A DNA stretch of 64,000 nt from a virus (taxonomy: Duplodnaviria > Heunggongvirae > Uroviricota > Caudoviricetes): IMG/VR virus record IMGVR_UViG_3300045988_161152; one strand, given 5' to 3'. Below the pieces are notes generated by a model. That model searched no databases and was not told where the DNA came from. It worked only from the letters and a program-made list of their open reading frames with translations. Shown in pieces: positions 33,724 through 63,945 of the stretch. The position numbers and the translations under genes are program-made. Within the stretch, counting starts at the first letter, position 1, and each line of letters begins with the position of its first letter.

Positions 33724-33945
33724 ATGGGATATTCAACTGCTAAAGTGTCCACTCATCTTGAGCTTGAGAAAAACCGTGGTTACTGGCGGGCAAAAGGGTT
33801 TGATCGTGATAGTTGCCAACTGTCATTATCGCGCGGTGAAGAGAAAATAGAACGCACGCGCGGTCGCTGGCGTTTCTATGACGAGAACCATAAACAGGTA
33901 AAGGCAGAGCCGATCCTGTACACTTTACTTAAAACCATTATCTGA
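33724..33945 (+). CDS. Hypothetical basic protein between loxP and cre
   Basis: 73-aa ORF with GAGGTGA RBS; fills the loxP-cre spacer. Confidence 0.35.
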   Translation: MGYSTAKVSTHLELEKNRGYWRAKGFDRDSCQLSLSRGEEKIERTRGRWRFYDENHKQVKAEPILYTLLKTII

Positions 33946-33952
33946 GTGTTAA

Positions 33953-34984
33953 ATGTCCAATTTACTGACCGTACACCAAAATTTGCCTGCATTACCGGTC
34001 GATGCAACGAGTGATGAGGTTCGCAAGAACCTGATGGACATGTTCAGGGATCGCCAGGCGTTTTCTGAGCATACCTGGAAAATGCTTCTGTCCGTTTGCC
34101 GGTCGTGGGCGGCATGGTGCAAGTTGAATAACCGGAAATGGTTTCCCGCAGAACCTGAAGATGTTCGCGATTATCTTCTATATCTTCAGGCGCGCGGTCT
34201 GGCAGTAAAAACTATCCAGCAACATTTGGGCCAGCTAAACATGCTTCATCGTCGGTCCGGGCTGCCACGACCAAGTGACAGCAATGCTGTTTCACTGGTT
34301 ATGCGGCGGATCCGAAAAGAAAACGTTGATGCCGGTGAACGTGCAAAACAGGCTCTAGCGTTCGAACGCACTGATTTCGACCAGGTTCGTTCACTCATGG
34401 AAAATAGCGATCGCTGCCAGGATATACGTAATCTGGCATTTCTGGGGATTGCTTATAACACCCTGTTACGTATAGCCGAAATTGCCAGGATCAGGGTTAA
34501 AGATATCTCACGTACTGACGGTGGGAGAATGTTAATCCATATTGGCAGAACGAAAACGCTGGTTAGCACCGCAGGTGTAGAGAAGGCACTTAGCCTGGGG
34601 GTAACTAAACTGGTCGAGCGATGGATTTCCGTCTCTGGTGTAGCTGATGATCCGAATAACTACCTGTTTTGCCGGGTCAGAAAAAATGGTGTTGCCGCGC
34701 CATCTGCCACCAGCCAGCTATCAACTCGCGCCCTGGAAGGGATTTTTGAAGCAACTCATCGATTGATTTACGGCGCTAAGGATGACTCTGGTCAGAGATA
34801 CCTGGCCTGGTCTGGACACAGTGCCCGTGTCGGAGCCGCGCGAGATATGGCCCGCGCTGGAGTTTCAATACCGGAGATCATGCAAGCTGGTGGCTGGACC
34901 AATGTAAATATTGTCATGAACTATATCCGTAACCTGGATAGTGAAACAGGGGCAATGGTGCGCCTGCTGGAAGATGGCGATTAG
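33953..34984 (+). CDS. cre: Tyrosine recombinase Cre
   Basis: 343 aa; MSNLLTVHQNLPALPVD N-terminus and the catalytic R-H-R-Y region of Cre. Confidence 0.97.
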   Translation: MSNLLTVHQNLPALPVDATSDEVRKNLMDMFRDRQAFSEHTWKMLLSVCRSWAAWCKLNNRKWFPAEPEDVRDYLLYLQARGLAVKTIQQHLGQLNMLHRRSGLPRPSDSNAVSLVMRRIRKENVDAGERAKQALAFERTDFDQVRSLMENSDRCQDIRNLAFLGIAYNTLLRIAEIARIRVKDISRTDGGRMLIHIGRTKTLVSTAGVEKALSLGVTKLVERWISVSGVADDPNNYLFCRVRKNGVAAPSATSQLSTRALEGIFEATHRLIYGAKDDSGQRYLAWSGHSARVGAARDMARAGVSIPEIMQAGGWTNVNIVMNYIRNLDSETGAMVRLLEDGD

Positions 34985-35001
34985 CCATTAACGCGTAAAT
35001 G

Positions 35002-35018
35002 ATTGCTATAATTATTTG
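35002..35018. promoter_or_regulatory. C1 operator-like site upstream of cra
   Basis: ATTGCTATAATTATTTG (variant). Confidence 0.4.
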
Positions 35019-35034
35019 ATATTTATGGTGACAT

Positions 35035-35346
35035 ATGAGAAAGGATTTCAACATCGACGGAAAATATGTAGTGCTGTCTGTAAGCACTAATATTCAGTCG
35101 CCAGCCGTCATTGTCACTGTAAAGCTGAGCGATAGAATGCCTGATATTGACTCAATATCCGTTGCGTTTCCTGTCAAAAGTATGCGTAGTGCTGAACATT
35201 TCGTGATGAATGCCACCGAGGAAGAAGCACGGCGCGGTTTTGCTAAAGTGATGTCTGAGTTTGGCGAACTCTTGGGTAAGGTTAACAATGTCCTTTCAAT
35301 CAGTTCAGCAAGGTCCAAAGCGTTAACAGCTTCCATGATGAAATAA
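35035..35346 (+). CDS. cra: Cre-associated protein
   Basis: 103-aa ORF directly downstream of cre; symbol from recalled P1 order. Confidence 0.55.
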   Translation: MRKDFNIDGKYVVLSVSTNIQSPAVIVTVKLSDRMPDIDSISVAFPVKSMRSAEHFVMNATEEEARRGFAKVMSEFGELLGKVNNVLSISSARSKALTASMMK

Positions 35347-35351
35347 AAAAA

Positions 35352-35372
35352 AGCCTGGCAAGGAGCCAGGCT
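35352..35372 (-). terminator. Hairpin with U-tract on the minus strand only
   Basis: AGCCTGGC-AAGGA-GCCAGGCT preceded by A8 on the plus strand. Confidence 0.35.
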
Positions 35373-35478
35373 GCACAAAAGAGCGGGTTTGTATTCCGCA
35401 TCCAATCAATCAAGAAGGAGTATAGCACACAGGTACTGAAGTGAAAAAATGTGATTCGCGATAAACAAAATATCTATC

Positions 35479-35508
35479 ATTGCTCTAATTGATTGCTATA
35501 ATTGAGCC
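35479..35508. promoter_or_regulatory. Tandem C1 operators upstream of ref
   Basis: ATTGCTCTAATTGATTG overlapping ATTGCTATAATTGAGCC. Confidence 0.55.
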
Positions 35509-35562
35509 GCAGTTTTTGTCAACTACGAAGACGTTGCCATTACTTCACTCCTTGACATCATT

Positions 35563-35588
35563 GGCGGCCATTAGGCCGCCTTTTTTTT
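35563..35588 (+). terminator. Hairpin plus U8 tract ending 5 nt before the ref ATG
   Basis: GGCGGCC-ATTA-GGCCGCC followed by TTTTTTTT. Confidence 0.5.
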
Positions 35589-35593
35589 GCCAT

Positions 35594-36154
35594 ATGAAAA
35601 CAATCGAACAAAAAATTGAACAGTGCCGCAAGTGGCAGAAGGCAGCCAGAGAACGAGCGATCGCTCGGCAACGGGAGAAGTTGGCTGATCCGGTCTGGCG
35701 AGAATCTCAATATCAGAAAATGCGGGATACTCTCGACCGCCGTATCGCTAAACAGAAAGAGCGCCCACCAGCCAGCAAAACGCGGAAAAGCGCGGTAAAA
35801 ATAAAATCTCGTGGCTTGAAGGGGAGAACACCAACGGCGGAGGAACGGCGCATCGCCAATGCTCTTGGCGCTCTCCCCTGCATTGCCTGCTATATGCATG
35901 GAGTAATATCTAATGAGGTGTCTCTGCACCATATCGCCGGTCGTACCGCGCCGGGTTGTCATAAAAAGCAATTGCCACTTTGTAGATGGCACCACCAGCA
36001 TGCAGCTCCGGCTGAAGTAAGAGAAAAATACCCATGGCTGGTCCCTGTTCATGCCGATGGTGTGGTTGGAGGCAAGAAAGAATTCACCTTGCTGAACAAG
36101 TCAGAGATGGAGTTACTGGCTGACGCCTATGAGATGGCAAACATCATGCACTAA
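35594..36154 (+). CDS. ref: Recombination enhancement function Ref (HNH endonuclease)
   Basis: 186 aa from ATG 35594; cysteine/histidine-rich C-terminal half consistent with an HNH fold; the longer track ORF would span operator and terminator. Confidence 0.8.
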   Translation: MKTIEQKIEQCRKWQKAARERAIARQREKLADPVWRESQYQKMRDTLDRRIAKQKERPPASKTRKSAVKIKSRGLKGRTPTAEERRIANALGALPCIACYMHGVISNEVSLHHIAGRTAPGCHKKQLPLCRWHHQHAAPAEVREKYPWLVPVHADGVVGGKKEFTLLNKSEMELLADAYEMANIMH

Positions 36155-36343
36155 TAAATATATTATTTTTAATGATAAATGATTGACAACTGACAAGTGA
36201 CTTCAGTCAGAATCATCACACGCCCGGTACGGATGGATCCCTTTTCAAATATTCCATGGACGGCACAGTCTGAGTACCGGGCGCTACCTTCAGTTGTATT
36301 GCTAAGCCGCCGCTGGTGGCTTTTCTTTTTTGTAGGGGGCGCT

Positions 36344-36985
36344 ATGGATAAGAAAATATGCGTTGTTTCGATGAGCGTCGGCAAACCGGCGTCAATGACT
36401 GCTGCATGGATCAATAACGAGCTGATAATGGCTGAGCGGACCAGCTACCCTGAACGCCGCCGCGATATGGAACTCCAGCTGCTGCGCGAATTGCGAGAAA
36501 AAGAGGAAAAGGGTTTTATCGTGCTGGTGGAAGAGGAAAACAGCTTTATTACTGGACGAGTTGGCCAGCGTGTAAGGTTGCGTGATCCCTTCATGAACGG
36601 TAGACCGGTACTGATTGAAGCAATGCAGATTTACAAGGAATTAGAACGCCAGAAAGCGATCAAGTTACCGCGCAAGGAATCCGGCAAATACATCCTCCAC
36701 CAAAGCATCTTCGATTCCGAACATGACAAAAAAGGCGATGAATTTTTCAACATCAACTGGAGCGAAATAACGACAGAGCACGTTCTGACGTTGTTATGCT
36801 GCTTCGCAACGGAATACAACAACGTTGCAAACTCCGACTACATCAGGGCAATGGCTGGAGAAGTTGAGCCACGCCAGGAACCATCGTTACTAAGCCCACT
36901 GATTAACATAATTCGCGGCACACAGAGACTTGCGGAAAAAAGCGTTCCACATGGAATCTTAACTGGAAAGGGAAACTATTTTTAA
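36344..36985 (+). CDS. mat: Hypothetical protein in the P1 mat position
   Basis: 213 aa from ATG 36344 with AGGGGG RBS; symbol from recalled P1 order. Confidence 0.5.
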   Translation: MDKKICVVSMSVGKPASMTAAWINNELIMAERTSYPERRRDMELQLLRELREKEEKGFIVLVEEENSFITGRVGQRVRLRDPFMNGRPVLIEAMQIYKELERQKAIKLPRKESGKYILHQSIFDSEHDKKGDEFFNINWSEITTEHVLTLLCCFATEYNNVANSDYIRAMAGEVEPRQEPSLLSPLINIIRGTQRLAEKSVPHGILTGKGNYF

Positions 36986-49620: not shown

Positions 49621-52351
<2,731 letters not shown>

Positions 52352-63384: not shown

Positions 63385-63945
63385 ATGCTAATAGGCTATG
63401 TACGCGTATCAACAAATGAACAAAACACTGCTTTACAACGAAACGCTCTTGAAAGCGCAGGATGTGAGCTAATTTTTGAGGACAAGGCGAGCGGCAAAAA
63501 GGCTGAACGCCCTGGGTTAAAAAAGGTTCTCCGTATGCTTTCCAGAGGTGACACCCTAGTCGTATGGAAGTTAGATCGTCTTGGGCGCAGCATGCGTCAC
63601 TTAGTTGTGCTGGTGGAAGAGCTGCGTGACAGAGGCATTAACTTCCGGAGTCTCACTGACTCCATCGACACCAGTACACCAATGGGGCGCTTTTTCTTTC
63701 ACGTAATGGGGGCGCTGGCAGAAATGGAACGTGAGCTTATCGTTGAACGTACACGCGCTGGACTTGATGCAGCTCGCGCAGAAGGTCGTATAGGTGGACG
63801 TCGGCCTAAATACCAAGAAGAAACATGGCAGCAAATGCGGCGATTGCTCGAGAAGGGCATCCCCCGTAAGCAGGTTGCAATCATCTATGATGTGGCTGTT
63901 TCCACGCTTTATAAGAAGTTTCCGGCGTCATCATTTCAATCCTAA
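63385..63945 (+). CDS. cin: Serine DNA invertase Cin
   Basis: 186 aa; MLIGYVRVSTNEQ catalytic-serine N-terminus typical of Hin/Gin/Cin resolvase-invertases. Confidence 0.95.
   Translation: MLIGYVRVSTNEQNTALQRNALESAGCELIFEDKASGKKAERPGLKKVLRMLSRGDTLVVWKLDRLGRSMRHLVVLVEELRDRGINFRSLTDSIDTSTPMGRFFFHVMGALAEMERELIVERTRAGLDAARAEGRIGGRRPKYQEETWQQMRRLLEKGIPRKQVAIIYDVAVSTLYKKFPASSFQS

Follow-up and report, generated by a model that had tools for sequence, protein, structure and literature searches.

The closest described system is the ref leader of bacteriophage P1 itself. That an attenuator precedes ref was proposed by Windle, Laufer & Hays (J Bacteriol 170:4881, 1988), and GenBank carries part of the arrangement as annotation (AF234172/NC_005856; Lobocka et al. 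2004). Going by its title, the 1988 paper, taken together with the P1 annotation, describes the same locus and the same C1 operator-promoter followed by an attenuator, with nothing essential that differs from the arrangement analysed here. On that account the ref leader attenuator is already known since 1988 and in itself adds little. The modest additions of this study are compensatory base changes across clades, a link between the presence of the terminator and the absence of a Shine-Dalgarno (SD) sequence, and the finding that neither an RNA antiterminator nor a leader peptide is conserved.

A comparable arrangement is found in lambdoid phages, where the PR' promoter is closely followed by the strong intrinsic terminator tR' (6S/StxS, Q antitermination; PMC7547250). 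There, as would be the case at ref, transcription by default yields a short RNA, and the genes beyond the terminator depend on read-through. Unlike PR', which is constitutive, the ref promoter is controlled by a repressor. No Q-like antiterminator or qut site was found at ref, and we know of no antitermination factor in P1. In the trp, pyrBI and bgl/sac attenuators, a terminator likewise separates the promoter from the first codon. These systems differ from ref, whose leader has no conserved leader ORF and no RAT-like element that we could identify, and whose candidate antiterminator helix is without covariation.

Ref is a RecA-dependent HNH nuclease which raises the lethality of ciprofloxacin in P1 lysogens and has also been used as a programmable nuclease, so a limitation of its dose is worth knowing. 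The DNA analysed here, called the window below, is a stretch of 64,000 nucleotides from an IMG/VR virus record (IMGVR_UViG_3300045988_161152). It is DNA of phage P1: positions 34950-36250 are 100% identical to it (AF234172, AF234173, NC_005856), and a window coordinate equals the coordinate in the NC_005856/AF234172 record plus 33517. According to the deposited P1 annotation, cre is located at 33953-34984, c8 at 35035-35346 with its stop codon at 35344-35346, and mat is annotated from 36233. The ref coding sequence lies on the plus strand at 35594-36154, encodes 186 amino acids from an ATG at 35594 and is preceded by the 5-nt spacer GCCAT, which begins at 35589. The gene upstream of ref was called cra in the preliminary description of this DNA; in the record that gene is c8, and cra, the 'cre-associated function' ORF, is found upstream of cre at 33724-33945.

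In front of ref, the plus strand carries the hairpin GGCGGCC-ATTA-GGCCGCC (35563-35580), with seven G:C pairs, a 4-nt loop and a folding energy of -15.0 kcal/mol. The stem is followed by eight Ts (35581-35588) and then by the spacer, so that 5 nt separate the end of the U8 tract from the ref ATG. We scanned both strands of the window for perfect 7-bp stems with at least six G:C pairs followed by at least seven Ts in the next eight positions. This strict scan returned three sites, two of which are the ref leader hairpin and the hairpin at 35352-35372 discussed below, and no such site occurred in 30 first-order Markov resamples. The hairpin and U8 tract are thus present as first described and go well beyond chance expectation. 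A G+C-rich stem-loop directly followed by a U run is what characterises an intrinsic terminator, and its place between the -10 hexamer of the P2ref promoter (35497-35502) and the ref ATG is that of an attenuator. We consider it likely that 35563-35588 is a Rho-independent terminator in the ref 5' leader and acts as an attenuator. Termination at 35581-35588 would be efficient, with read-through as the main route to ref mRNA.

The C1-controlled promoter P2ref is annotated in GenBank at 35474-35502 on the plus strand, with the -35 hexamer at 35474-35479, a TGc extension in front of the TATAAT -10 hexamer and a predicted +1 at about 35509. The TATAAT is invariant in the related loci. P2ref overlaps the C1 operator Oref (35479-35495, plus strand; GenBank), whose sequence ATTGCTCTAATTGATTG matches the C1 consensus at 14 of 17 positions and which is monovalent. 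Tandem C1 operators had been proposed for 35479-35508. The supposed second copy (ATTGCTATAATTGAGCC, 35493-35509) matches at 11 of 17 positions only, while matches of at least 12/17 are already common in shuffled sequence, and it has another base in place of the C in the CTAAT core, a C kept by every site with at least 14/17. This second copy is the TGcTATAAT extended -10 of P2ref. A bivalent operator would have two sites matching the 17-bp C1 consensus (ATTGCTCTAATAAATTT), and ref has one of them.

Published data agree with the control of ref by C1. The repressor occludes 'one of the ref promoters', and inactivating C1.100 by heat increases ref mRNA 73-fold; H-NS also binds the ref 5' region, and the reported H-NS site CGATAAA is present in the window at 35459-35465 on the plus strand (Ronayne et al. 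2016, PMC4713147). RNA-seq of P1vir at 10 min gave a log fold change of 8.3 for ref, 7.6 for c8 and 7.5 for ssb (PMC8201110, Table S1). Transcription thus reaches ref early in lytic growth. Since ref transcripts early in infection match the level of other early genes, the terminator must be either leaky or overridden.

Besides Oref, the sequence ATTGCTATAATTATTTG at 35002-35018, 17 nt upstream of the c8 ATG, matches the C1 operator consensus at 13 of 17 positions. It contains TGcTATAAT and nearly duplicates the -10 segment of P2ref; GenBank instead places Pc8 at 34911-34942, within cre. In two related loci, one of them L033 (IMG/VR UViG_2645727673_000011), the left part of Oref is swapped for unrelated sequence (…GAGACGACCCCTAATTGGTTGCTATAAT), and the TATAAT, the leader and the terminator are retained. 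Judged from this replacement, ref may escape C1 control in loci of this type.

The absence of a conventional ribosome binding site, noted earlier for ref, was confirmed. The best duplex with the anti-SD sequence reaches just -1.5 kcal/mol and is found only at -18, with none at -15 to -5. Between -25 and +25 the folding energy is -3.4 kcal/mol, compared with a median of -7.0 kcal/mol for 57 ORFs of the window, which places the ref start close to the least-structured tenth of these ORFs. This weakly structured initiation region is A/U-rich, with the U8 tract at -13 to -6 and A-rich early codons. The suggestion that the hairpin context itself harbours the start of translation is imprecise: the stem ends 14 nt before the AUG, and the U8 tract, not the stem, takes the usual position of the SD. 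In E. coli, SD-independent initiation assisted by ribosomal protein S1 occurs on A/U-rich leaders. The ref start resembles such starts in the missing SD, the U8 tract, the A-rich early codons and the low degree of structure, but differs from them in having a stable hairpin that ends at -14, inside the usual footprint of the 30S subunit.

Two other readings of the start were rejected. An N-terminal extension of Ref from a TTG at 35489, within a 221-aa in-frame ORF, has its frame broken in relatives by 1-nt indels and by T-tract lengths between T7 and T10. As these leader indels break the upstream ORF, ATG 35594 is the ref start, and this ATG is kept across clades, including Cronobacter phage JK004. 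A helix that would sequester the start codon (35585-35593/35632-40) occurs in the minimum-energy fold of P1 only, and its 5' strand changes in variants with ACCTT or GACCAT.

To assess conservation we took 81 ref loci from collections of viruses and of genomes, which correspond to 50 distinct upstream variants of the P1 clade. All 81 have the hairpin, a tract of T7 to T10 and an SD-less spacer of 5-6 nt (GCCAT, GACCAT or ACCTT). The loop varies between ATTA, ATCA and TAAA in the P1 clade, the only changes in the stem are from G:C to G:U, and 99.2% of the stem cells are paired among 19 distinct P1-clade leaders. More distant loci are those of Cronobacter phage JK004 and Salmonella plasmid p21-SA00706-0, with a Ref about 65% identical to that of P1. 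They have an operator-like sequence ATTGCTCTAATAATTAT overlapping a TATAAT, then a leader of about 55 nt which is partly homologous to the one of P1, the terminator GACGGTC-TTCG-GACCGTC followed by T8, and ref after another 10-13 nt without a good SD. In JK004 and L093 of this clade the order of promoter, terminator and ATG is the same as in P1, and two of the seven stem pairs are changed on both sides (G:C to A:U and C:G to U:A) in a compensatory manner. The conserved pairing, including these compensatory changes, shows that the leader terminator is under selection.

Ref of the D6 type (56% identical) has no leader terminator and is preceded by the SD sequence GUAAGAGGC. In the three clades, the presence of the terminator thus goes along with the absence of an SD, and its loss in the D6 type coincides with the gain of an SD. 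No counterpart of the predicted P1ref promoter, nor any alternative downstream promoter, was found in the JK004 clade, so there ref must be expressed by read-through.

If P2ref transcripts stop at the terminator, the leader RNA is expected to be about 80 nt long (35509-35588, plus strand). Its 5' end forms a hairpin (35509-35537), one pair of which has changed in a compensatory manner from C:G to U:A in three sequences; a CU-rich single-stranded stretch (CACUCCUUGAC) and the terminator follow. The CU-rich motif directly 5' of the terminator is kept in both the P1 and the JK004 clade. A potential antiterminator helix of 7 bp in P1 (35533-35539/35562-35568) shows no covariation and loses three pairs in diverged classes. 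RNAalifold returned the terminator alone and no alternative consensus structure across clades. There is no ATG or GTG in the leaders of P1 and L093 and no conserved leader peptide; a 9-codon ORF (MTKSLYSPP) occurs in JK004 only, and control by a leader peptide was therefore discarded. A search of both strands against Rfam gave nothing that reached the gathering threshold. The leader further contains an anti-SD-like CUCCUU at 35549-35554, just 5' of the terminator, which is CCUCCC in the JK004 clade. Two plus-strand AAGGAG motifs are located in the c8 3' region (35360-35365 and 35415-35420). The hairpin at 35352-35372 carries one of these in its loop, and RNA-RNA complementarity between CUCCUU and these motifs is possible.

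We propose the following model for the expression of ref. Rightward transcripts would start at the C1-repressed P2ref, and c8, whose own hairpin is not followed by a U-tract on the plus strand, probably adds further ones. Most of these transcripts would stop at 35581-35588 and yield the leader RNA, and the ref ORF would be carried only by the fraction that reads through, be it by constitutive leak or under regulation. As the U-tract occupies the place of the SD, the read-through mRNA would be translated from the SD-less, A/U-rich and weakly structured start, probably inefficiently and, as we infer, with the help of S1. Together with repression by C1 (and Lxc/Bof) and the binding of H-NS, the terminator would keep the level of a host-damaging nuclease low, and Ref could still be expressed early in lytic growth. 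The idea that ref needs read-through or antitermination had already been put forward in the preliminary description and is supported in part. The conserved terminator, its compensatory changes and the JK004 clade without a downstream promoter speak for it; the annotated, predicted P1ref and the lack of a conserved antiterminator helix or leader peptide in the leaders compared speak against it.

The main rival to this attenuator model is that the terminator is an insulator, which shields ref from c8 and P2ref transcription, and that ref mRNA comes mainly from P1ref. This promoter is annotated in the P1 record and was also found by our promoter scan, as TTGCCA (35534-35539), a 16-nt spacer and TGa-CATCAT with the -10 at 35556-35561 (35534-35561 overall, plus strand). 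Its expected start at about 35567-35569 is located inside the 5' arm of the leader hairpin, so that the hairpin would be unable to form in P1ref transcripts. With such a start, the predicted P1ref comes close to what the preliminary description had named as evidence against its own reading, namely ref transcripts that begin downstream of the hairpin at an unrecognised promoter. The statement that C1 occludes just one of the ref promoters would fit a second, bypassing one. The P1ref hexamers persist in the P1 clade, but they do so in plasmids without ref as well, and nothing equivalent to this promoter exists in the JK004/L093 clade, where the terminator is conserved. Moreover, the match to the promoter consensus is weak (9/12) and at chance level, with seven such matches in the scanned region against 3.5 expected, and an unrepressed P1ref leaves the 73-fold dependence of ref mRNA on C1 (PMC4713147) unexplained. 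We therefore regard a bypass through P1ref as unlikely.

Two further explanations draw on relatives without ref, which make up about 8% of some 700 matching plasmid records, a share estimated by sampling the rows at even intervals. These plasmids retain the arrangement from c8 through operator/promoter and leader up to the hairpin. Exactly at the end of the T-tract their sequence changes to a KilAC antirepressor gene in convergent orientation, with its stop codon at a distance of 3-6 nt. Examples are L002 (NZ_CP058750, 1531-1840) and L003 (NZ_CP099870, 1531-1850), with a convergent icd-like/KilAC antirepressor operon in place of ref. The unit from promoter to terminator can thus exist without ref, which keeps a function of the leader RNA of its own possible: P2ref to the terminator would be a C1-controlled gene for a regulatory RNA of about 80 nt and ref a by-product of leaky termination, similar to StxS, which arises from early termination of the PR' transcript of Shiga-toxin phages. 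In the ref-less P1-like plasmids promoter, leader and terminator are about 91% identical, with homology stopping at the T-tract, and the CU-rich motif kept in both clades would also suit an RNA gene. Close plasmids may, however, have retained the unit simply because it hitch-hiked at a junction of the mosaic; the stem of one ref-less variant contains a mismatch, and the leader RNA has no Rfam match. An RNA gene of this kind would be compatible with the attenuator model, and we give it a rather low probability. The junction exactly at the T-tract also makes the terminator a mosaic boundary, and the homology breakpoints of relatives at or near it, together with the hairpin of L002 and L003 that abuts the 3' end of the convergent gene, could mean that it is a generic stop at a recombination junction, with no regulatory role and only incidentally close to the ref ATG. 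This is very improbable, given that the layout of operator, leader, terminator and SD-less start is kept at 65% Ref identity with compensatory changes in the stem, and that the loss of the terminator in the D6 type coincides with the gain of an SD. As a further observation on these plasmids, a 13-bp deletion in L002 merges the direct repeat ATTGCTCTAATTG/ATTGCTATAATTG into a single copy.

The second hairpin, AGCCTGGC-AAGGA-GCCAGGCT at 35352-35372, is situated directly 3' of the c8 stop codon. The plus strand has no T-tract after it, and the eight As on its 5' side (35345-35352) are eight Ts on the minus strand, in agreement with the earlier observation that the U-tract exists on the minus strand only. 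Read on the minus strand, the stem-loop (35372-35352) and U8 (35352-35345) form an intrinsic terminator with -15.6 kcal/mol, and 35345-35372 is predicted to be a strong terminator for leftward transcription only. Its stems are invariant among 68 distinct related sequences, where only loop bases and the length of the A/T-tract vary.

To the right of this hairpin, at a distance of 50 nt, we predicted a minus-strand sigma-70 promoter (35447-35419) with TTTTCA, a 17-nt spacer and the extended -10 TGc-TATACT. The -10 and its TG do not vary, unlike the spacer. Most of the spacer variation comes from one small clade, and a mosaic or recombination boundary would be an alternative explanation for it. 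A hypothetical RNA of about 68 nt from this promoter (35345-35412, minus strand) folds with -23.2 kcal/mol (z = -3.1). Its 5' end (UGAUUGAUU) would be single-stranded and followed by an internal hairpin, a linker rich in U and the terminator with U8. The terminator at 35345-35372 may therefore close a minus-strand RNA with the typical architecture of a small RNA. The block 35315-35454 is the most conserved one in the c8-ref region, with 0.4-2% of the cells differing, compared with 4-19% in the flanking coding sequence. The candidate RNA is absent from the annotation of the P1 record and matches no Rfam family at threshold. Its best non-self duplex in P1, as a measure of trans targets, has -33 kcal/mol, compared with -31 to -40 kcal/mol for 20 shuffled seeds, so no target within P1 exceeded these controls.

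Terminator-like hairpins are also present near other C1 operators. At the 5' end of mat (36233-36346), a hairpin at 36304-36322 (AAGCCGCC-GCT-GGTGGCTT, followed by TTCTTTTTTG) lies inside the annotated coding sequence. Of 80 related loci, 45 have the annotated ATG at 36233 in a different frame from a downstream ATG at 36344, which is preceded by GGGGG. These frame breaks indicate that mat probably starts at 36344, which would make the hairpin a leader terminator located 3' of Omat/Pmat/LPmat. As judged from the sequence, mat probably has the same layout as ref, with a leader terminator 3' of a C1-controlled promoter. Just after dmt (2414-2631), a bivalent C1 operator at 2414-2441 is followed by about 165 nt without a credible ORF and by a strong plus-strand terminator (2604-2623 and T8), and the genes for tRNA-Asn and tRNA-Thr start only at 3097. 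A C1 operator followed by a terminator was found in three cases among about 11 operator loci, compared with about 1.5 expected under loose criteria, which is not statistically compelling. That promoter-proximal terminators are a shared design of several C1-controlled P1 units (ref, mat and post-dmt), and that the c8-ref spacer encodes two divergent, terminator-bounded regulatory RNAs (the ~80-nt leader and the ~68-nt minus-strand RNA), seems to us a fairly improbable combination. If true, the shared design would imply an unrecognised mechanism of read-through or antitermination in early P1 transcription.

Outside the ref region the window is no longer colinear with NC_005856. Window position 50000 is unmatched in positions 1-61500 of that record, and position 63900 maps about 1.8 kb further along NC_005856 than the offset predicts. 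Both are consistent with a P1 variant without IS5 in mod and with another indel.
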